A program made the translations under genes and the position numbers. Shown in pieces: positions 24,200 through 34,155 of a stretch of DNA of 34,577 bases. The stretch comes from a virus (Duplodnaviria > Heunggongvirae > Uroviricota > Caudoviricetes), in IMG/VR virus record IMGVR_UViG_3300022871_000009, positions 64,001 to 98,577 of that record; one strand, written 5' to 3'. How positions within the stretch are numbered: the stretch's first letter is position 1; each line of letters starts with the position of its first letter. A model generated the notes under the pieces. That model saw nothing but the letters and a program-made list of their open reading frames with translations, was not told the origin of the DNA and searched no databases.

Positions 24200-24474
24200 G
24201 TGCATAACTCAAAAAATGGTGGGGATTTTTTTTGAATGTAGCAAATTGTAATATGCAGTTTGTAGTGGGGGCGGGGGTTAGGGTGTAGGATGCAGAATGG
24301 AAAACTTTATCTGTGGCTTTTAGGGTAGAATTGAAAAATGAAGTAAAAAAGTAGGTGGGTCCCTATACTATAGTATCTGAAGAAAAGTATGAGTCCCAAA
24401 TGGAATCACTCCCCCCTACCCCCAATAGACAATATAAAAACTATATCGCTGTACTTATTTATTCATCTAACCAC

Positions 24475-24651
24475 ATGCCTATGTACCCTTTAGCTTTAGT
24501 GTCATACTCTGGCACTGCAAAAGACCTTCGTTCACAGCTAGCAGTCGGCTTACTATCAACAGCCGAACAGAGAGCAGCCGAAGAGGCTGAGTCAACAGAG
24601 GACATCGATACAGCATTGCATCATGCACTTGCATGGTTACAAGCTATATAA
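24475..24651 (+). CDS. Small hypothetical protein (58 aa)
   Basis: ATG start within track ORF 24355-24651, preceded by TTTATTCATCTAAC resembling other early-gene leaders. Confidence 0.45.
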   Translation: MPMYPLALVSYSGTAKDLRSQLAVGLLSTAEQRAAEEAESTEDIDTALHHALAWLQAI

Positions 24652-24704
24652 AAACTATACTCACGAGCTATCATTAGCTCATTTATTATTAACCATATAA
24701 TCAT

Positions 24705-24974
24705 ATGGCAGTCAAAAGAGAAGAGCCTCAAGTACAAACAGAAACACCTCAAATCAAGAGAGATTTCAAGAGAGATTTCATTGGCAAGGCCTGGTTGAAC
24801 AAAGTACTCAAAGGTGAACACGAAGGTACAGAGTATATCAACCTCACACTGGATAACAACATCCAAGAGGTTACTATCGAGAAGGGCAATAGATTGTTAC
24901 TATGGCCTAATGAGAAGCGTGAAGGCAAGCAAGATGCTGACTTCCGTGTGTCTCTCGTACAAACAGCCGCTTAG
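24705..24974 (+). CDS. DUF736-like small protein (possible nucleic-acid binding)
   Basis: IGKAW...YINLTLD...LLLWPNEKREGKQDADFRV pattern. Confidence 0.5.
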   Translation: MAVKREEPQVQTETPQIKRDFKRDFIGKAWLNKVLKGEHEGTEYINLTLDNNIQEVTIEKGNRLLLWPNEKREGKQDADFRVSLVQTAA

Positions 24975-24986
24975 TCACCGGTTCAC

Positions 24987-25017
24987 AGGCAGTAGGCCGC
25001 CTTTCGGTCTACTGCCT
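24987..25017 (+). terminator. GC-rich hairpin, possible terminator
   Basis: AGGCAGTAG/CTACTGCCT stem plus GCC/GGT; weak U tail. Confidence 0.5.
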
Positions 25018-25046
25018 AATTAATTCTAACATAATCCCATGCTTTT

Positions 25047-25199
25047 ATGTTAAACGCAACACAGTATATTGTCGTAAACCTCGACAATAAAGAAGAGAAT
25101 AACTACAACACAATGGACGAGGCTAGAAGAGCTCTAGTATACCTACTCACACTAGGCTACGGAGCTTACATAGTTACTCTACCTCTCCACCAGGTGTAG
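25047..25199 (+). CDS. Small hypothetical protein (50 aa)
   Basis: Manual translation MLNATQYIVVNLDNKEENNYNTMDEARRALVYLLTLGYGAYIVTLPLHQV; A/C-ending codons like its neighbours. Confidence 0.55.
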   Translation: MLNATQYIVVNLDNKEENNYNTMDEARRALVYLLTLGYGAYIVTLPLHQV

Positions 25200-25328
25200 C
25201 TTAACAGCTCACTGGTGAGGGTCCAACATGAATTTGAGTTGAGAGTTTCAATATCTTCCTTAATGGTGGTCAAGCGTTTCGCAGTATCGTATAAAGAACT
25301 GTACAACTTGTGTGAATTATAAGATAGC

Positions 25329-25353
25329 AGACAGCCCTTCGGGCTGTCTTTTG
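25329..25353 (+). terminator. Intrinsic terminator
   Basis: AGACAGCCC-TTC-GGGCTGTCT followed by a T-run. Confidence 0.8.
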
Positions 25354-25572
25354 TCGTGCTTACTACACAATGTAGAGTGTAGTATGAAGATATGTAGTTG
25401 AATATGTGAAATGTGTATGTAAAGAAGTAGGTGTTGAGAGACGCTCATACATATACGCATTTTAGCTAGAAAACCCGCCTCACGGCGATTTCAACCAATT
25501 ACAGCCAAACTAATCCACAAAGAGAACCTTTATTACAACAACCTCAAGTTTAAATAATTTAATAACCACTAT

Positions 25573-25890
25573 ATGAAGAAACACATAACAAAAAAACAAT
25601 GGGATGAATTAACTGACGAACAAAAATTAAAATGGGTAGAATTTGATGATACTCATCTTGTGGAGAATGGTTGGGATAAATTTATGTTAGTAACACATAT
25701 AAACCAGTGTACAACAGCAAAACCAAACATAGGTCAAATGATAGAGTTCTTGGGTAAGGATTTAGGAACTGATAACAAAATTTTCCACATATATGATTAT
25801 GATAAATTCAGAGAATGGAGATTCAAGCTACCATTTAGAGAAGAAATATGTGACGCTCTATGGGAAACAGTTAAAGAGAAACTACAATAA
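25573..25890 (+). CDS. Hypothetical phage protein
   Basis: 105 aa; HITKKQWDEL...IGQMIEFL...ICDALW. Confidence 0.75.
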   Translation: MKKHITKKQWDELTDEQKLKWVEFDDTHLVENGWDKFMLVTHINQCTTAKPNIGQMIEFLGKDLGTDNKIFHIYDYDKFREWRFKLPFREEICDALWETVKEKLQ

Positions 25891-25891
25891 T

Positions 25892-26021
25892 ATGCAAATA
25901 GTGGAAACTAGATGACTCAAAAGGTAGAGGAGAACTTATTCCTATATGGTCTAAATGGAACAAAGAACTAGATAAATACTGGAACTCTCTACCTGTACCC
26001 AAAAGAAAAGACTTGTTCTAA
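25892..26021 (+). pseudogene. Frameshifted small ORF
   Basis: ATG CAA ATA GTG GAA A CTA GAT GAC...: removing one A gives MQIVELDDSKGRGELIPIWSKWNKELDKYWNSLPVPKRKDLF. Confidence 0.35.
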
Positions 26022-26058
26022 TTCAATAGCCATCCTAACGGCTAATCAACACTAACCT

Positions 26059-26328
26059 ATGAAATCATACAAAATAATACTCATAGCAACACTAAAAAGC
26101 ACACTAACCGATAAACAACTAAGGGACAAAATAGCTCTATGTCTCTACGACACACAAACACAAGAAAGCAAACAAGACGGAGTAGACAGTGAGCTCGAGA
26201 TTTTAGACTACATAGACACTGAGGTATACCCAATGAGCTGGTTTGACTTCATAGACACAAATACATCAGATGTAGATATTCTATCTACATTACTAGATAA
26301 TGAATTAAACTTATCTCCCACAGATTAA
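26059..26328 (+). CDS. Hypothetical protein
   Basis: 89 aa, region-typical codon use. Confidence 0.7.
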   Translation: MKSYKIILIATLKSTLTDKQLRDKIALCLYDTQTQESKQDGVDSELEILDYIDTEVYPMSWFDFIDTNTSDVDILSTLLDNELNLSPTD

Positions 26329-26329
26329 A

Positions 26330-26354
26330 CCAGCCACTCCTCCAATTCATCAAC
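26330..26354 (+). repeat. Early-region leader motif, copy 1
   Basis: CCAGCCACTCCTCCAATTCATCAAC, 9 nt before ATG 26364. Confidence 0.85.
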
Positions 26355-26363
26355 CAATAACAT

Positions 26364-26561
26364 ATGCTCACCTTACTCGCATTCATAATAGCAGGATTAG
26401 GTATAGTATTATTCGCAGTAATACTAGCAGTAACCACAACAAAAACTATGGACAAATACCCAGAACTAACAACGACAGCAAGCAGCAAAACAACTATAGA
26501 AGACCCAGACCTAGACATTAAGAGGCACTCCCTTAGAGAGGGAGATACTAATAGATATTAA
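26364..26561 (+). CDS. Small protein with N-terminal TM helix
   Basis: 65 aa; LLAFIIAGLGIVLFAVILAV. Confidence 0.7.
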   Translation: MLTLLAFIIAGLGIVLFAVILAVTTTKTMDKYPELTTTASSKTTIEDPDLDIKRHSLREGDTNRY

Positions 26562-26580
26562 TACTCTCCTACGGGATATA

Positions 26581-26609
26581 CCAGCCACTCCTCCAATTAA
26601 TTCATCAAC
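26581..26609 (+). repeat. Early-region leader motif, copy 2
   Basis: CCAGCCACTCCTCCAATTAATTCATCAAC; first 18 nt identical to copy 1. Confidence 0.85.
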
Positions 26610-26690
26610 ACAAAACATGATGAGATAGCAGAAATACAAAGTATTATCAAAGACTTAGAATAATAATAAACATAGAATAATAATAAACAT

Positions 26691-27020
26691 ATGGCAACAT
26701 CAGCAGAACAAGAACTACTAGATGCAATCATGCGTCTAAGAAAAATGGCTACAGAGAGAGCAAAAGGAAGTATATTCCGCCGCTTGGCCAATAGAAACAA
26801 CTACTTCTGGGACTTCATGACTGGTCTACTAATAGAACGATACGAATCAGATGGAGAACGAGAAAAACGCATAGCCAACAGTGAACGTGTCAAACAACTC
26901 TACCATAGCAGAAAGAAGAAAGGATTCTGTACTAAATGCGGTGACGCTGTAGCACAGGTACACAGAAATGGTAAGCCACATATATACTGCGAAGACTGTA
27001 AAAGTAGAGACCACAAATAA
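26691..27020 (+). CDS. Hypothetical protein with C-terminal Zn finger
   Basis: CTKCG...CEDC. Confidence 0.75.
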   Translation: MATSAEQELLDAIMRLRKMATERAKGSIFRRLANRNNYFWDFMTGLLIERYESDGEREKRIANSERVKQLYHSRKKKGFCTKCGDAVAQVHRNGKPHIYCEDCKSRDHK

Positions 27021-27080
27021 AATAGAAAGAGAAAGAAATAGAGTTAATAATTATATAGTTATTCCCCTATACATTAGGGG

Positions 27081-27107
27081 AGCCACTCTCCCACTTTATT
27101 CATCAAC
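27081..27107 (+). repeat. Early-region leader motif, copy 3
   Basis: AGCCACTCTCCCACTTTATTCATCAAC preceded by the CCCCTA/TAGGGG hairpin, followed by TTAAAACTATATG. Confidence 0.85.
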
Positions 27108-27117
27108 TTAAAACTAT

Positions 27118-27726
27118 ATGCACACATTAGCCATACTGCTAACCAAAGCAACCACTAAAGACGAAGCCAAAACAAACATAAACTCATTCATGGAAGAATA
27201 TGGAGACGGACAAGTTTGGGACTGGTTCGTAATAGGAGGAAGATGGAGCGGACAACTCAACAAAAACAACCAGAAGTTTAAAGACACAGTCAGAGAAAGA
27301 AATGTATTCGAAGACAACGACATGATATCAGTCAAAGATGTAGAAGATAACCAAGAAGTACTCCAAGGAATATGGGAAGAACTAGGAGAATTTAGCAAGC
27401 ACCCATACAACAGAGATAGCTACGACAACAGAGGGAATGACGAAGACATAATGCACGCAACCAAGTGCGAAGAGATAATAAAAAGACACACAAGAGACAT
27501 AGAGAAATCAATAGAATCCAAATGGCAAGAGATACTCAGCGCCAGGCGCAGAGCCAAAGACAAAGAAATGCACGACTCAAGTGGTTATCTTGCAAGAGAG
27601 TATGCAGACCTAGTAGGTGACGACTTCTCATTTGAGAGTACAACCTTCGATGTAGACGCATACACAAACAATCCACCTAAAGATTTAACTAACTACTACG
27701 CAGTAGTAGTAGACATGCATAATTAG
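27118..27726 (+). CDS. Conserved phage hypothetical protein (WDWFxIGGRW motif)
   Basis: 202 aa; VWDWFVIGGRWSG and C-terminal YAVVVDMHN, a pattern recurring in phage proteins of unknown function. Confidence 0.75.
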   Translation: MHTLAILLTKATTKDEAKTNINSFMEEYGDGQVWDWFVIGGRWSGQLNKNNQKFKDTVRERNVFEDNDMISVKDVEDNQEVLQGIWEELGEFSKHPYNRDSYDNRGNDEDIMHATKCEEIIKRHTRDIEKSIESKWQEILSARRRAKDKEMHDSSGYLAREYADLVGDDFSFESTTFDVDAYTNNPPKDLTNYYAVVVDMHN

Positions 27727-27731
27727 AATAT

Positions 27732-27926
27732 ATGAAAGTAAAACAACTCATAGAACAACTAAAGAAGTCAGACCCAGAAGCAACCATATACATGTCTACA
27801 GATGAAGAAGGTAATGGATTCCATGGAGTAGAAGAAGTAGCCACAATGGATGGTTACACAGGAGCTAAAAAGAATGGGAAGACTCACCTACTCATCTGGC
27901 CTGACAATGAATATCATGACTTCTAA
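27732..27926 (+). CDS. Small phage hypothetical protein
   Basis: MKVKQLIEQLKKSDPEATIYMSTDEEGNGF. Confidence 0.75.
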   Translation: MKVKQLIEQLKKSDPEATIYMSTDEEGNGFHGVEEVATMDGYTGAKKNGKTHLLIWPDNEYHDF

Positions 27927-27944
27927 TACCCTATAGGTTAGGCA

Positions 27945-27971
27945 AGCCACTCTACCACTTTATTCACCAAC
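27945..27971 (+). repeat. Early-region leader motif, copy 4
   Basis: AGCCACTCTACCACTTTATTCACCAAC, 25/27 identical to copy 3, preceded by the CCTA/TAGG hairpin. Confidence 0.85.
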
Positions 27972-27980
27972 TTAAACTAT

Positions 27981-28151
27981 ATGAACGAAGAAACAAAAAT
28001 ATGCCCAATCTGCAAAAAACCAAACAAAGGAATAGGTGCTCTATCAAGAAAAGACAACAAAACAGAAATATGTTCAGAGTGTGGTACTAGAGAAGCACTA
28101 CAGAACTATTACGCACACACCAAAGAATTATCAATTAAAAATAAAAAGTAA
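27981..28151 (+). CDS. Small Zn-ribbon protein (56 aa)
   Basis: Manual translation MNEETKICPICKKPNKGIGALSRKDNKTEICSECGTREALQNYYAHTKELSIKNKK. Confidence 0.75.
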   Translation: MNEETKICPICKKPNKGIGALSRKDNKTEICSECGTREALQNYYAHTKELSIKNKK

Positions 28152-28203
28152 GACCAGTTTGAGAGCACCCCCAAGCAAGTGAGACCAGTTTGAGAGCACC
28201 CCC
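28151..28203 (+). repeat. 22-bp direct repeat x2 (31-bp period)
   Basis: AGACCAGTTTGAGAGCACCCCC at 28151-28172 and 28182-28203. Confidence 0.9.
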
Positions 28204-28253
28204 TGTTCTCATAATTAATCAATCATCTCGAAAGAGAACTATAAAACAAATCT

Positions 28254-28385
28254 ATGGACATCATTCCAAGCACACCAATAGAACATCTCCTCATAGGTAT
28301 TCTACTCGTAGAGAAGACAATCTTCTGGATTATACTCATCCTATCAGCCATCATCATCCCACATAAACTCAGTAGAAGTAAATAG
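28254..28385 (+). CDS. Small membrane protein (43 aa)
   Basis: MDIIPSTPIEHLLIGILLVEKTIFWIILILSAIIIPHKLSRSK. Confidence 0.5.
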   Translation: MDIIPSTPIEHLLIGILLVEKTIFWIILILSAIIIPHKLSRSK

Positions 28386-28570
28386 TCAATGAAAGTAGAC
28401 AACAAAGACAAAAATATTTAAAAACTACATCTTTGCTTTACATTTTGTTCATCTAGGGTTTTATAAAACTCTGGTAACCTATTTAACTTATGGCCAACAC
28501 AGGAGAATACATAGACATCCACCTAAGATTAGAAAATGAAGAAGACCTAGAATAATTAAACAAAAAGCCT

Positions 28571-28732
28571 ATGAAATGTCCGCAATGTGGCCATGAAGCA
28601 AGCACATACCTCGAAGATGGTCGATACTTCGTAATGTGTATAGCTTGTGGCCTCCATACACTCCTCAAATTAATTCATCAATACAAATCTAACTATGGAA
28701 ATACAAATACCCAAGAACAGCAAGTTAGATAA
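28571..28732 (+). CDS. Small Zn-ribbon (Lar-like CPxCG...CxxCG) protein
   Basis: Manual translation MKCPQCGHEASTYLEDGRYFVMCIACGLHTLLKLIHQYKSNYGNTNTQEQQVR; runs through motif copy 5 and overlaps the next start. Confidence 0.5.
   Translation: MKCPQCGHEASTYLEDGRYFVMCIACGLHTLLKLIHQYKSNYGNTNTQEQQVR
28659..28681 (+). repeat. Early-region leader motif, copy 5
   Basis: CACTCCTCAAATTAATTCATCAA, 22/23 identical to the copy 2 core. Confidence 0.75.
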
Positions 28733-29462
28733 GTGGCCCAGCGAAGAGAGACTACAAACAGATATAAATGAACAAGAAGAAAGTTACAAAGACCACTTAA
28801 CACTACGCTTTGATGACCTATCACTAAAAGGTCAACGAAAATTATGTCACATATTCAAGATGCACTCTCCACTATGGTCACTCAAAAAACCAGACGAATA
28901 CGGTGGCATAACTTTAAAAGAAATGTACCACGCACTGCGCATAAGCAATCCAGTTATATTCAACAACTGGCAAAAAGGATTCTGTTATGGAAGTCTACCG
29001 AGAAACCAGGCAGAAAGAATCAGCCAAATTATCTACTACTTATGCAGACGTAAACCAACAAGGAAAGCAATCGCATTCGTCAAAGAAAAAACAAAAACTT
29101 ACCCAACACACATTAGAACACAATGGGGAAGCAGACCAGACAGACAAACAGGAATAGAATCTTTAAATCAAATAAGAAGAAGAATATTGGAACTCAGCCA
29201 AATAGGAGTAGACATAGACCCAGCAAGCTACACTCCAATATTCACAGAAGAACCAATAGTAGAACAACCACCGATAGCAACCACATTGTCTGACGGCAGC
29301 TCCAGACCACTAACAGAAGAAGATGTACAAGAAGCATACGATAGATTAACCGCACAACGAACTACAGAACAATATTGGAACGAAGCAGCAGCAATGATGG
29401 ACACAAGTACCCTAGACGAAGGAGAAGAGCCCGAAGAAATAGACACATCAACCATTAACTAA
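28695..29462 (+). CDS. Hypothetical protein, acidic C-terminus
   Basis: 255 aa, region-typical codon use. Confidence 0.75.
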   Translation: MEIQIPKNSKLDKWPSEERLQTDINEQEESYKDHLTLRFDDLSLKGQRKLCHIFKMHSPLWSLKKPDEYGGITLKEMYHALRISNPVIFNNWQKGFCYGSLPRNQAERISQIIYYLCRRKPTRKAIAFVKEKTKTYPTHIRTQWGSRPDRQTGIESLNQIRRRILELSQIGVDIDPASYTPIFTEEPIVEQPPIATTLSDGSSRPLTEEDVQEAYDRLTAQRTTEQYWNEAAAMMDTSTLDEGEEPEEIDTSTIN

Positions 29463-29479
29463 TTTTAATTCACAAACAT

Positions 29480-29899
29480 ATGCCCTACAAATGTAAACAC
29501 TGCGACGCAGTAGTAAAATACCTATGCTACAGAACAGGAGGATACGAATACGGTTCATGTAGCCCAGAAGGAGACGACTGGGAAGAAGAAGGACATGAAT
29601 GCGACGGAGACACAACATTCGAATGTCCAGAATGCGAATATGAAGACTCAAACGAAAGAAACATAGTAGAAGAAGTAGATGATGAAGATGAAGATGAAGA
29701 AGAAGAAATCAAACCCATAGACATCATGGCTCCAATCAAACCTCCAAAGATAAAAAACAACCCAATGATGAATGAATTCAGAAACAAAAGAAACTCAATG
29801 TCAAATGTAAAAGAATGCCCAAAATGTAAAACGATAATAGACGTTGACTATGAAGAAACAGCAATAGAATGCCCCATATGTAACACTACTGTAAATTAA
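29480..29899 (+). CDS. Multi Zn-ribbon protein with acidic linker
   Basis: CKHC...CPEC, poly-D/E linker, CPKC...CPIC. Confidence 0.75.
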   Translation: MPYKCKHCDAVVKYLCYRTGGYEYGSCSPEGDDWEEEGHECDGDTTFECPECEYEDSNERNIVEEVDDEDEDEEEEIKPIDIMAPIKPPKIKNNPMMNEFRNKRNSMSNVKECPKCKTIIDVDYEETAIECPICNTTVN

Positions 29900-29940
29900 T
29901 AAAACTCTAATCTTTTTATTCACATAAATATATAAACCAT

Positions 29941-31461
29941 ATGGTAAAGAAAACCATAAAAGAGTTCCCGTTCACAATGGGCGCAGACCCAGAGTTCAAC
30001 ATAGTCATGCAAGACAAGCAAATCAACGCACAAAACTTCTTCAAAGACATCTTCGATAAAGATAAAACACGAAAAGACATGGGATACGAAATTGGAAAAG
30101 AAGGTTCAATCGGTTGGGACGGAGCATCACACACAGCAGAAGCAAGACCAGCTCCAGCTAACACAGCAGCAAAATTAACAGAAAACCTCGGAGCAATATT
30201 CAAAGAAACAGCAAAACATGCACAATTATTTGAACTATCAACATTATCAAATGCAGCCCCAGTAGGAGGACATATTCACTTCTTACTTCCAGACAATTCA
30301 ACTGATTCAACATCAGTAAAGAAAATACACAAACAACTCAGCTCATTTTACATTCCACTTCTTCTAGGAGAAGATGCCCTAAATTTAAGAATCAGAAAAA
30401 ACAACGGCTACGGAGAAATAACAGACCACAGAACACAAGAAATCAGAGGAGACAAATACACATTCGAATTTAGAGTACCATCAGCAGAATGGTTAACCAC
30501 ACCAAGAATAACTCTAAGCACAATAGCTTACCTAGGAACAGTATACAACGAAATACTGAACCACCCAGAAAACATGAAACTAGTAAAAGAGATTCTAATC
30601 ACAAGCAACAAACAAGCCGAAGCACTACAGTCTCTCTCAATGTCTAGCTTCGTATTCCTAACTCAAGCACTCATACAAAAAATCAAGAAACACATCAAAC
30701 AATTTGAATTCTACCCACAATACAAAGAAGAAATAGACTTCATATTAAATCCTAAGAAAGTACTAAAAGAAAAACAAAAGGTAGACTTCAACATCCTAAA
30801 AGGCTGGAATCTGTATGATGTAATCAAATTCAACAAAACAGAATTCCTAAATAGAAAGAACGTAGAAAAATTCGGCAAAAAAGTAGATTTAGACAAATAC
30901 AAAGGAGGAATTCCAGTCAAATACAATGATGACGACTATGTAAGCAACTTTGTAAGAGACTTAGAACACAGAACACTCACCTTCAACATGAAGCTGAAAA
31001 ACAAATACTTTGTATTCGGTCTAAGAAAGGGAATTACTAAAATAATCGCCACCAACAAAAACCATAAATACGTAAGAGGTGCCGAATTAATCAAATCTGA
31101 TTATGAACATGAAATAATAATGACCCAAGTATTCGAAAGAATGAACCAAAGATTCTACACAACAAACTCAGGGAACCATCGCCCCAAAGATGAAGACGAC
31201 GGAAGAAAACATATCATCATAGGACTACCATACGAAATGAGGTTATCTCAGGACTCAGAAGAATTCTTAAAATTCATCTACGACCTAGAAAAACAACCTA
31301 AAAAATACCCTGAAGTAATACCAGAACGCAACAGTCAAGTAGACTCAAACTCAGAAGTGTACAGAGCATACAAAACAGACACAGAAACAACAACCAGACC
31401 AATAGAAGCAACTGACGCAACAAGACAAGCACAGCAGGAAATAGACGAAGAGTCACTTTAA
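29941..31461 (+). CDS. phiEco32-like COOH-NH2 ligase type 2 (glutamine synthetase/GCS-fold amidoligase)
   Basis: FTMGADPEF, IGWDG, EARPAP, GGHIHF, FEFRVPS motifs. Confidence 0.8.
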   Translation: MVKKTIKEFPFTMGADPEFNIVMQDKQINAQNFFKDIFDKDKTRKDMGYEIGKEGSIGWDGASHTAEARPAPANTAAKLTENLGAIFKETAKHAQLFELSTLSNAAPVGGHIHFLLPDNSTDSTSVKKIHKQLSSFYIPLLLGEDALNLRIRKNNGYGEITDHRTQEIRGDKYTFEFRVPSAEWLTTPRITLSTIAYLGTVYNEILNHPENMKLVKEILITSNKQAEALQSLSMSSFVFLTQALIQKIKKHIKQFEFYPQYKEEIDFILNPKKVLKEKQKVDFNILKGWNLYDVIKFNKTEFLNRKNVEKFGKKVDLDKYKGGIPVKYNDDDYVSNFVRDLEHRTLTFNMKLKNKYFVFGLRKGITKIIATNKNHKYVRGAELIKSDYEHEIIMTQVFERMNQRFYTTNSGNHRPKDEDDGRKHIIIGLPYEMRLSQDSEEFLKFIYDLEKQPKKYPEVIPERNSQVDSNSEVYRAYKTDTETTTRPIEATDATRQAQQEIDEESL

Positions 31462-31498
31462 ACCAGACCAATTTATTCAAATATTAAACTAAAAACTT

Positions 31499-32692
31499 AT
31501 GTGTGGAATAGTAGCAGCCTTCAATCATGGAGAAAACAAAGAACCAGTCAACGAAGACATAACAAACCAACTAGAAGACCAACTAAACAGAGGAAAAGAA
31601 GGATTCGGAATAGCTTTTCTCAATCAACACAAAAACGTTTGCATAGAACGTTCAACAGAACTAGTCAAAACAATCGTTGACCTTAAACTCAACAAAAGCA
31701 GAATGATTCTCTTACATCATAGATATCCAACAAGCTCAGAAAACAAAGTAAGCCAGACTCATCCAATCCTAGTTTCAGATGGAAGTCTAGAATACAACTA
31801 CCTAGTAGTACACAACGGAGTCATACACAACGAAGACGACCTAAAAGAAGAACATGAAAACGAACTAGGATTCGTATACAAGACAAAAAGAATCAAAGAC
31901 AAAGGATATACAACAGAAAAAGAAGAATACAATGATTCAGAATCACTAGCAATAGAAGCAGCAAGATTCATAGAAAAACAATCAAACAAAATAAAAGCAG
32001 AAGGCTCCGCTGCATTTATTGCTATACAAATCGACAAAAAGACGAACAAAGCAAAAAACTTATTCTTCGCCAGAAACAGTTCTAACCCTCTAAACATGTC
32101 AAAAACAAGAGGTAAACTAAGACTAAGTTCAGAAGGAGAAGGAGACCCAATTAAAGAAGACACACTATACAGCTGTAATCTAATAGACTTCAAACTCACC
32201 AAACGAGCATGTATAATAGACACCTGGAAAGTAACTCCAAAATCATACACACCAGTAAGCCCATACCCAGAGTGGTCAAAACCAGGAGCAATCAGCAAAG
32301 CCAATGAAGCGAACAAAGAAGAACTAGCAAACAGATATATAACAACAGGAAAAGAAGAAGAAAAAGAAGAAGAAGAAGAAGAAGAAACAATACAAGATAT
32401 GGCACAAGACCAAATGAACGAAATACAAGAAAAAACAGAGCAAGAATGCACAAATCTCATGACAGAATGTATAAACTCAATGGTAGACGACTTATTCGAC
32501 GAACAAGAAATAAAATCAGAAAGACAAATCAAAAGACAATACATAAATGAAGTGATAGACGAAATAGAAGAAAAATTAATTAAAGTATATGAATCTCTTG
32601 GAGAAGCAGCAGCAGAAATAGTACTAAAAGCAGAAATAGAAAAAGAGAACATACAATCAATTGAAGAATATGAAGAATCTCTATCCACATAA
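31499..32692 (+). CDS. Class II (Ntn) glutamine amidotransferase with acidic C-terminal extension
   Basis: N-terminal MCGIV (nucleophile Cys2), RG.EGFG, HHRYPT, THP, HNGVI, DSE. Confidence 0.88.
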   Translation: MCGIVAAFNHGENKEPVNEDITNQLEDQLNRGKEGFGIAFLNQHKNVCIERSTELVKTIVDLKLNKSRMILLHHRYPTSSENKVSQTHPILVSDGSLEYNYLVVHNGVIHNEDDLKEEHENELGFVYKTKRIKDKGYTTEKEEYNDSESLAIEAARFIEKQSNKIKAEGSAAFIAIQIDKKTNKAKNLFFARNSSNPLNMSKTRGKLRLSSEGEGDPIKEDTLYSCNLIDFKLTKRACIIDTWKVTPKSYTPVSPYPEWSKPGAISKANEANKEELANRYITTGKEEEKEEEEEEETIQDMAQDQMNEIQEKTEQECTNLMTECINSMVDDLFDEQEIKSERQIKRQYINEVIDEIEEKLIKVYESLGEAAAEIVLKAEIEKENIQSIEEYEESLST

Positions 32693-33101
32693 AGAAGAAA
32701 TACTCAAAGGAATCTTCACGCCAAAAGAAAACCTAACAAAAACTATACAGACCTGGCAAAAAGAATTCTGGAAAGAAAGTAAAAAAAAGGGCGAAGAAGA
32801 AAGGTTCTTCGCCCTAAAGGGCTTGATACAACAATTAGCAACACTACACGATAATCCTGTTAAAGTAGAATATCGTCCTTCCTTAGCTTCGTGTTGCTAT
32901 GTACCGACTATAAAAACTATATTTTTGAACAATTCACTTTCCATCATTTCTAGTTTACATGAACTTAGTCATCATTTAGCAGGTAGTTCTGAGCTCACTG
33001 CTTGCATTTGGTCGATTAGCCTGTTCAAAGCCGCATTCCCAAAGGCTTACAACAAACTAGAATGGAAAGGACATTTATTAATCAGAGGCAAAGCCTCATA
33101 A
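32670..33101 (+). CDS. HEXXH zinc metallopeptidase-like protein
   Basis: SIISSLHELSHHL preceded by CCYVPTIKTIFL; ATG 32670 overlaps the GATase stop. Confidence 0.65.
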   Translation: MKNLYPHKEEILKGIFTPKENLTKTIQTWQKEFWKESKKKGEEERFFALKGLIQQLATLHDNPVKVEYRPSLASCCYVPTIKTIFLNNSLSIISSLHELSHHLAGSSELTACIWSISLFKAAFPKAYNKLEWKGHLLIRGKAS

Positions 33102-33112
33102 ACACAACGCAT

Positions 33113-33556
33113 ATGCCGAACACACCAGAAGCACAAGGGCCATCAATCCTACGAGACAAAGTACAGGGTTTTAGAGACAAAGCAAGAGAAACATTACGCA
33201 TGGAAAAAGTAGCAGCTTTACTACAAGATTACTTCCACGCAGAACGAGTCCTTAAAACAGTTACAAAAGATGCAGAGGAACATGCAGAAATGATTGAAAT
33301 AATGAAATACGAAGCAACAAAATTAGATGACAAACATCCAGCATATAAAGAAAAACTAGAGAGAGCAGAAACTACAATTAAAAATGAAGAAAAACGTACA
33401 GAAAAATATGCAGAAAGCATCGAAAAATGTCAAAAATCTCTCACAGATATTGACACACAAATCGCAGAAGTAGAACAAGGAAAATACTTAGTAAGCATCG
33501 ACAATGTAGAAAGCCTTACAAGAAAGTTGATTGAAAGAGATATGTACACAAGCTAG
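33113..33556 (+). CDS. Coiled-coil hypothetical protein
   Basis: ATG 33113 within track ORF 33062-33556; heptad-rich. Confidence 0.7.
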   Translation: MPNTPEAQGPSILRDKVQGFRDKARETLRMEKVAALLQDYFHAERVLKTVTKDAEEHAEMIEIMKYEATKLDDKHPAYKEKLERAETTIKNEEKRTEKYAESIEKCQKSLTDIDTQIAEVEQGKYLVSIDNVESLTRKLIERDMYTS

Positions 33557-34083: not shown

Positions 34084-34155
34084 GCAAGAGGGTCGGGGTC
34101 GAACCAACTACCTTCTGCTTTTCAAGCAGACACTCTACCGTTGAGTTACCTTGGC
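34084..34155 (-). tRNA. tRNA-Phe(GAA)-like element with a disrupted acceptor stem (possible pseudo-tRNA)
   Basis: D arm ACUC/GAGU, anticodon arm UCUGC-UUGAAAA-GCAGA, T arm GUUGG-UUCGACC-CCGAC; acceptor GCCAAGG vs CCUCUUG pairs at only 3 of 7 positions; no encoded CCA. Confidence 0.6.

Follow-up and report, generated by a model that had tools for sequence, protein, structure and literature searches.

A conserved early operon of uncultivated phages links a predicted COOH-NH2 ligase to a stand-alone glutaminase and a minimal zincin-fold protein

The last 34.6 kb of the 98,577-bp phage record IMGVR_UViG_3300022871_000009 (Caudoviricetes; estimated completeness 99%), a stretch of 34,577 nucleotides spanning positions 64,001 to 98,577 of that IMG/VR entry and referred to here as the window, carries an operon that brings together a COOH-NH2 ligase, a glutamine amidotransferase (GATase) of class II and a small HEXXH protein. 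The minus strand of the window (1-24034) encodes virion and host-like proteins, among them the major head protein, the portal, the terminase, GroEL and a UDP-glucose dehydrogenase-like protein, while the plus strand (24355-33556) is a densely packed, A-rich region of early type with an AT skew of +0.3 to +0.45, and it is on this early strand that the genes of the operon are tightly packed. An earlier sequence-only reading had described four open reading frames (ORFs) at 29480-33101, namely a Zn-ribbon protein, the ligase, the GATase and the HEXXH peptidase, all of which exist as described. The conserved module is wider, extending over approximately 28695-33556, and additionally includes a gene upstream (family c9) and a coiled-coil gene downstream (family c14), which gives the order c9, Zn-ribbon protein (family c4), ligase, GATase, zincin and c14.

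To follow this arrangement across phages, loci were drawn from viral, metagenome and genome contigs and scored with hidden Markov models (HMMs) built in this analysis. In the core set of 81 non-redundant loci, all with a long-form ligase that shares 30-60% identity with the one in the window, the GATase gene follows the ligase at every testable locus (63/63; median gap 19 nt), and the HEXXH gene, whose co-occurrence with the pair had been regarded in the sequence-only reading as decisive, comes after the GATase at 52 of 53 loci (median gap 4 nt), locus L095 being the sole exception. The flanking genes are less constant: the Zn-ribbon gene precedes the ligase in 46 and c9 in 27 of 53 loci, and downstream the families c6 and c14 occur in 24 and 30 of 42 loci, respectively, c6 being missing from the module of the window by the same HMM scoring. 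In two further viral contigs the ligase lies at one end and the HEXXH gene at the other, so that the module wraps round the contig ends. Linkage of the three enzyme types is near-obligatory and, because gene order is kept at 30-60% ligase identity in 81 loci, the arrangement is far beyond chance. The operon is real, conserved and widespread, and it is carried in the early region of a clade of uncultivated phages of ~86-102 kb in the form (c9)-Zn-ribbon-ligase-GATase-zincin-(c6)-coiled coil.

The ligase matches the PF14395 profile with residues 13-270 of its 506 (profile positions 1-234 of 254; E=2.9e-15, 56.6 bits against a cut-off of 25), and a six-frame search of the genome with PF14395 gave 57.7 bits for the same gene. 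An AlphaFold2 (AF2) model based on a 133-sequence alignment reached a predicted local distance difference test score (pLDDT) of 93, and alignment of its residues 9-290 with VIA-align placed this domain closest to YbdK (Z 18.8, root mean square deviation 3.0, 244 residues aligned), Dop (Z 18.2), PafA (Z 18.1) and plant glutamate-cysteine ligase (GCL; Z 17.5), with ~245-265 residues aligned in the top folds; glutamine synthetases followed at Z 10-12, and Foldseek recovered the same families. Across the 133 sequences, E67, G109, G110, H111, E176 and R178 are invariant, and D16, E18, R69, H113 and R152 are at least 90% conserved. The acidic, His and Arg residues of this set probably form the metal and ATP site, their counterparts in the solved enzymes being assigned without superposition, and fold and residues together predict ATP-dependent amide-bond formation. 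Sequence searches reached much less far: tblastn against 50,697 GenBank phage records found no match for the ligase, nor did tblastn against GenBank phages for a short-form ligase, and no sequence in the PDB was matched by the ligase alone or by the 133-sequence profile. Among viral structure models, the nearest is that of a short-form COOH-NH2 ligase, the 267-aa protein of Salinivibrio phage CW02. In some related phages a second, very divergent ligase paralogue (~360-390 aa) lies a few kb upstream of the main module (Table 1); the genome of the window has one ligase only. A distant relative (L100:5965-10658) has enlarged genes, with a ligase frame of 667 aa and a GATase of more than 730 aa, followed by a HEXXH ORF of ~210 aa.

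The long C-terminal extension of the ligase, already remarked on in the sequence-only reading, is kept in more than 120 full-length relatives and is confidently folded to about residue 455. A profile of residues 292-465 matches family c3 (hhalign probability 80%, E=1.5e-5, 112 columns), while 10 unrelated families gave E values of at least 0.018 and 20 column-shuffled c3 alignments of at least 0.045; the motifs YN.D.N, Y.FGLR and I.IG...R are common to both. Family c3 comprises proteins of ~150 aa that are encoded by a separate gene between the ligase and the GATase in the classic short-ligase clusters described below. Because of the hhalign match and of the identical order of ligase, c3 and GATase, the extension is identified as a fused copy of this accessory subunit, and the fusion shows the ligase to act together with other proteins of the operon. 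The c3 family has no Pfam or PHROG match, and an Atlas search with the C-terminal domain returned no usable match. Against solved structures the domain gave weak matches only (3pu6, Z 5.0; Amidase_3-type amidases, Z 4.7-4.8), and we do not take the amidase resemblance as a sign of muropeptide binding.

Separated from the ligase by a 37-nt gap, the GATase ORF (31499-32692) encodes a 397-aa protein that starts with MCGIV. Its match to GATase_6 is marginal (27.9 bits, cut-off 27), those to GATase_7 and GATase_4 fall under their cut-offs, and PurF chains match at E values of 8e-4 to 2.5e-3. Residues 1-118 align to PurF, with HHRYPT on PurF HVRYPT (Arg73) and VHNG on AHNG (Asn101-Gly102); the equivalent of PurF Asp127 (in NDSE) lies beyond the aligned stretch and was assigned by motif. 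The MCG start, which puts the Cys nucleophile right after Met, is shared by the window protein and 55 of 55 relatives, in which RG, HHRxPTS..N..QTHP, HNGxIxN and NDSE are at least 90% conserved. The protein is therefore predicted to be a stand-alone N-terminal nucleophile (Ntn) glutaminase with the full set of glutamine-binding residues. These profile, fold and PurF alignments agree with the earlier recognition of a phiEco32-type ligase next to a class II GATase. Downstream of the glutaminase domain, a tail of 120-260 aa containing 17-30% aspartate and glutamate (D/E) is present in all 55 relatives, its sequence not being conserved.

As had been noted from the sequence, the HEXXH ORF overlaps the GATase stop; the overlap measures 23-32 nt, and the ORF carries the motif HELSHHLAGSSE at 32958-32993 (HELSH at 32958-32972). 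H97, E98, H101, G105, E108 and C112 are invariant in an alignment of 25 sequences (36-58% identity), so that catalytic residues, whose loss would have counted against the sequence-only reading, are kept in the alignments of all three enzymes. The AF2 model built from these sequences (pLDDT 95) has almost exclusively zincins among its best folds (SPRTN, Z 6.6; selecase, 6.1; jannalysin, 6.0; CapP, 6.0; PprI, 5.8; Wss1, 5.3), and Foldseek gave probabilities of 0.9-0.99 at E ~0.04. With known minimal zincins, namely SPRTN/Wss1, the minigluzincins (selecase among them), ImmA/IrrE/PprI and CapP, the protein shares the HEXXH helix on a small alpha/beta core over ~100 aligned residues, as well as an acidic candidate for the third ligand, the invariant E108. 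It differs from them in that HEXXHxxxGxxE is followed by an invariant Cys and in being a stand-alone protein of 135-160 aa that is tied to amidoligase operons, without a DNA-binding or repressor partner. With M78 (ImmA/IrrE), SprT, WLM and Tox-MPTase as the named zincin families considered, no Pfam family is reached (best E 0.02-0.09, in 2 of 25 members); the window protein matches phrog_87 ('metallo-protease') at E 0.0027 and has no tblastn match in GenBank phages. A search with the family profile gave 792 representatives (clusters at 50% identity, of which the best 150 are listed), 489 of them at E<=1e-10 and nearly all 130-170 aa long. In two of these proteins, P0144 (301 aa) and P0216 (286 aa), the HEXXH domain is fused to a c14-type coiled coil, and c14 is therefore tied to the zincin. 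PADLOC returned only coiled-coil noise for c14.

Table 1. Features of the module, of the window end and of related loci (window coordinates unless a locus is named).
Feature	Position	Strand	Basis
c9, 255 aa, facultative module member	28695..29462	+	homologues 5' of ligase in 27/53 testable loci
c4, double Zn-ribbon protein, acidic linker EEVDDEDEDEEEE at 29669-29707	29480..29899	+	homologue just 5' of ligase in 46/53 loci
COOH-NH2 ligase (PF14395) with c3-like accessory domain, 506 aa	29941..31461	+	PF14395 match
Ligase catalytic domain, residues 9-290, glutamine-synthetase/GCS2 fold	29965..30810	+	structure alignment
Ligase C-terminal alpha/beta domain, residues 323-455	30907..31305	+	hhalign to c3 family of classic clusters
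Stand-alone class II (Ntn) glutaminase domain of GATase, ~residues 1-235	31499..32203	+	GATase_6/7/4 matches, PurF alignment
Acidic, sequence-variable C-terminal tail of GATase, incl. KEEEKEEEEEEE at 32351-32386	32204..32692	+	55 relatives
Minimal zincin-fold HEXXH protein, 143 aa from ATG (alternative TTG 32661)	32670..33101	+	motif, AF2 fold
c14 coiled coil, 147 aa from ATG 33113 (ORF opens 33062)	33113..33556	+	3' of HEXXH in 30/42 loci
tRNA-like element	34089..34151	-	Rfam RF00005
Divergent ligase paralogues in relatives	L008:4100-5173, L035:1449-2609, L062:2423-3571, L100:4226-5395, L101:2530-3666

The cluster of phage phiEco32, to which the pair was likened, is one for which peptide or cell-wall modification was predicted by Iyer, Abhiman, Burroughs & Aravind 2009 (Mol Biosyst 5:1636), as cited in PMC10580990 and PMC7824862. 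In our own search of phiEco32 (EU330206), gp86 corresponds to PF14395, gp84 to PF12224 (Amidoligase_2), gp83 to a GATase of 676 aa, gp80 to an ATP-grasp protein and gp77 to a gamma-glutamylamine cyclotransferase (GGACT). As in the window, the PF14395 ligase lies close to and upstream of the class II GATase on one strand. However, the phiEco32 ligase has 268 aa as opposed to the 506 aa of the window form, which is enlarged by the fused accessory protein, and in the window the HEXXH zincin, the coiled coil and the Zn-ribbon protein stand in place of the ATP-grasp, Amidoligase_2 and GGACT proteins. The lack of an ATP-grasp or gamma-glutamylcyclotransferase partner, which the sequence-only reading had reported for the window, extends to the whole 98.6-kb genome: there is no match to phrog_2599 or PF13535 for ATP-grasp (the controls were detected), to PF06094 for GGACT/AIG2 (control detected in 9 of 14) or to PF12224 (control detected). 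The module of the window is a stripped variant, with different partners, of this predicted and uncharacterised phage amidoligase system.

The classic short-ligase clusters, found in jumbo and other metagenomic phages (L012-L022), provide a second point of comparison. They encode c8, a ligase of ~290 aa, c3 (~150 aa), a GATase of ~265 aa, c2 and a small Zn-ribbon protein, and c2 is a RimK-like ATP-grasp protein (phrog_2599, E=5e-11; c2 also matches phiEco32 gp80 at 1.3e-40). Their order of ligase, c3 and GATase is the domain and gene order of the window, and a small Zn-ribbon protein is present there too. In contrast to the window, c3 is separate, the GATase has no acidic tail and ATP-grasp is present; the HEXXH family occurs in none of 13 classic-type loci. 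Homology between c4 and the classic-cluster Zn-ribbon (c11) was considered and rejected as unproven, the hhalign E value of 6e-6 being set against ~1e-4 for unrelated Zn-ribbons of the window. Family c8 (L014:6714-6974 and homologues), 85-100 aa long and encoded just 5' of the short ligase, looks by eye like a swapped hairpin of AbrB/SpoVT type and has no Pfam or PHROG match. Since the adjacency of ligase and GATase holds across long-form loci, classic clusters and phiEco32, we regard these two as the core.

The HEXXH family also occurs beside an amidoligase of another family. In phage contigs of 67.7% GC (L120, 3189-5459, and L121), a PF12224 Amidoligase_2 (E=2.3e-18; phrog_2443, 5e-26) is followed by a 238-aa protein starting with MCV and then by a member of the HEXXH family, which gives the zincin family a link to two different amidoligase families. 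The 238-aa protein of L120 shows Ntn-like motifs (MCV start, HxR, HP, HNG, SDS) and has no significant profile match (E 0.21) and no Pfam or PHROG match. Neighbouring genes in L120 and L121 encode a P-loop/GNAT fusion protein and an ASCH protein.

Our preferred reading, which we hold tentatively, is that the ligase and the GATase form a split glutamine-dependent amidotransferase that amidates or ligates a peptide or protein carboxylate, while the zincin and c14 process the substrate or the product. In enzymes of the glutamine-synthetase fold, ammonia attacks an acyl phosphate, and the ammonia released by class II GATases passes to ATP-dependent partners that activate carboxylates, as in AsnB or, for peptidoglycan amidation, LtsA. 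By analogy, the operon would encode a cytoplasmic amide-bond system. Its ligase would activate, by phosphorylation, a carboxylate of something peptide-like, be it a protein of the host or phage or a peptide precursor of the cell wall; the nucleophile would be ammonia that the neighbouring glutaminase releases from glutamine, so that the pair would act as X-COOH + Gln + ATP -> X-CONH2 + Glu + ADP + Pi. The zincin and its coiled-coil partner would prepare the substrate by cleavage, or else trim or reverse the product. The position of the module among early host-takeover genes suggests that a host target is remodelled soon after infection. Several observations weigh against this mechanism. A literature search found no report of activity for any PF14395 protein; no ligase-GATase fusion was found among longer proteins and no ligase fusion of more than 886 aa was found, which is weak evidence; and the fold matches of the zincin are modest (Z 5-6.6). 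Furthermore, we know of no well-studied ammonia-channelling class II GATase that is not fused to its synthase, and the known stand-alone one, EgtC, which we take to be a gamma-glutamyl amide hydrolase with a GCS2-type ligase as partner, favours the rival considered next.

This main rival, possible in our view and less probable than a split amidotransferase, is gamma-glutamyl or peptide tagging and its removal: like PafA, GCL and EgtA, the ligase would couple glutamate or a short peptide to an amine, either on a protein or on a metabolite, the Ntn enzyme would be an EgtC-like hydrolase and the zincin would remove or process the tag. It comes near to the writer/eraser pair proposed in the sequence-only reading, minus the poly-Glu acceptor. 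That pair acting on Glu residues, and the role in superinfection exclusion or anti-defence suggested with it, are plausible conjectures. The ligase fold is as close to PafA/Dop (Z 18.1-18.2) and GCL as to YbdK, with conserved residues of the same kind at the metal and ATP site and, if the chemistry is shared, an acyl-phosphate intermediate attacked by an amine; at the level of sequence, however, there is no detectable similarity to PafA/Dop or YbdK/GCL. The GATase stands alone, without a synthase domain, classic clusters add two enzymes of glutamate and gamma-glutamyl chemistry (the RimK-like ATP-grasp and the GGACT gamma-glutamylamine cyclotransferase), and SPRTN and Wss1, proteases that act on protein adducts, are among the best folds of the zincin. 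General precedents are the pairs EgtA/EgtC and RimK/RimB. In ergothioneine biosynthesis, a small-molecule pathway that includes EgtB and EgtD, the GCS2-type ligase EgtA is paired with EgtC, a stand-alone protein of class II GATase fold that hydrolyses a gamma-glutamyl amide. The window likewise combines a GCS2-type ligase with a stand-alone class II GATase-fold protein, a likeness drawn from general knowledge, but it has no EgtB or EgtD partners and the genes lie in a phage early operon. From the PafA/Dop and YbdK/GCL systems, to which an Ntn glutaminase partner is foreign, the module also differs in having neither a Pup-like tag gene nor a proteasome. Other features speak against tagging. No small protein ends, like Pup, in a conserved Glu or Gln, families c4, c6 and c14 being variable at the C-terminus. 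The GATase keeps all residues needed for hydrolysis of free glutamine, as EgtC-type enzymes do, and isopeptide cleavage by the zincin would have to be assumed.

We think it unlikely that the module is a pupylation-like conjugation system in the stricter sense, in which host proteins would be modified early in infection by a PafA/Dop-fold ligase with its fused adaptor, the attached group being glutamate, a peptide or a moiety derived from glutamine. The Ntn enzyme would activate or deamidate the donor, and zincin and coiled coil would serve as maturing protease or deconjugase. If true, the phage, which may infect candidate phyla radiation (CPR) bacteria, would own a full set of writer and erasers with which to take over the host or counter its defences.

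There is likewise a small chance that the genes serve small-molecule metabolism, as auxiliary metabolic genes that, for a host of reduced metabolism, produce or recycle an amidated metabolite or a gamma-glutamyl compound, such as a polyamine, a thiol or a precursor of the cell wall, with the peptidase supplying or trimming the substrate. The solved folds nearest to the ligase are those of small-molecule enzymes (YbdK, GCL, glutamine synthetase and gamma-glutamyl-methylamide synthetase). Module-bearing contigs fall into bins of CPR or DPANN genomes and come from 0.1-um groundwater fractions, and the genome carries other metabolic genes, namely a rhamnose pathway and ugd. Yet the constant partners of the pair are a Zn-ribbon protein, a zincin and a coiled coil rather than metabolic enzymes or transporters, the module sits among early small genes, away from the sugar-metabolism island, and the ligase has an extra protein-like accessory domain.

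The sequence-only reading had further proposed that the poly-Glu/Asp tracts of neighbours serve the ligase as carboxylate acceptors, to be amidated or extended, which we now regard as very unlikely. Both tracts exist, but only EEVDDEDEDEEEE belongs to a neighbour, the Zn-ribbon protein; KEEEKEEEEEEE is part of the tail of the GATase itself. Acidic composition does recur, with 10-29% D/E in Zn-ribbon homologues and 17-30% in GATase tails, and the Zn-ribbon gene is linked to the ligase in the 46 loci noted above. The Zn-ribbon protein has four CxxC pairs, and its homologues conserve CPxC...CPEC and CxxC...CPxC while the acidic run varies: the densest acidic 15-mer holds between 4 and 13 D/E in the 45 homologues listed. 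Both tracts are encoded by (GAA)n-type simple repeats on a strand whose early proteins are generally acid-rich (16.8% D/E vs 12.9% in virion-side proteins), and the runs at 32351-32386 and 29669-29707 are probably liable to slippage, in keeping with the variable length of the acidic tails in relatives. Moreover, c4 resembles the classic-cluster Zn-ribbon barely above the level of generic Zn-ribbon similarity (E 6e-6 vs 1e-4). The composition thus recurs and the tracts, judged from these alignments, are not conserved sites, and for this reason the acceptor idea is weak.

Finally, decoration of modified thymidine in DNA by the amidoligase and amidotransferase, for which the co-association of Pfam amidoligase and amidotransferase genes with the thymidine-hypermodification genes 5-HMUDK and aGPT-Pplase in viral contigs (Lee et al. 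2021, PMC8989533) provides a precedent, is highly improbable here, as the genome has no thymidylate-synthase-type hydroxymethylase (PF00303; control detected in 10 of 14), no kinase, glycosylase-fold or pyridoxal phosphate enzyme is among the conserved neighbours in the 81 loci, and the module is located in the early region, apart from the replication genes (a search of the genome for PF12851, TET/JBP, gave no match and its control was likewise silent).

Of the enzyme sets in phage genomes that still lack an explanation, the pairing of amidoligase and glutamine-amidotransferase genes is one of the most frequent. To our knowledge, the prediction made for the amidoligase clusters in 2009 has never been tested. 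The variant described here is pared down to three enzymes. It is widespread, with 792 clusters at 50% identity in the zincin family alone. Its partners are fixed, and from the natural fusions, of the ligase to c3 and of the zincin to the coiled coil, it can be read which proteins act together; the variant thus offers a compact, tractable entry point to the substrate. New in the present analysis are the ligase-c3 and zincin-c14 fusions, the zincin fold, the association with PF12224 and the linkage counts. Whether as a split amidotransferase of glutamine-synthetase-fold and Ntn subunits or as protein tagging, the system, if either reading is true, would represent a post-translational or cell-wall modification of a new kind, directed by the phage.

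Of the contigs that carry the module (here the genome contigs L105, L106 and L107 and the metagenome contigs L026, L032, L034, L038, L041, L047, L068 and L103), some are binned in metagenome-assembled genomes named Candidatus Shapirobacteria and Paceibacterota (both CPR) or Aenigmatarchaeota (DPANN), and many others come from 0.1-um groundwater fractions, which may reflect CPR hosts or phage contigs mis-binned with small-cell genomes. At the upstream border of the module, c9 has no Pfam or PHROG match and gave no usable match in an Atlas search. Downstream, in the gene-poor end of ~1 kb that closes the record, a tRNA-like element on the minus strand scores 47.7 bits against RF00005 (gathering score 29; model positions 5-66 of 71). 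Its anticodon loop reads GAA (Phe), the acceptor stem pairs poorly and ARAGORN calls no tRNA, and it may be a decayed tRNA gene or the remnant of an attachment site.

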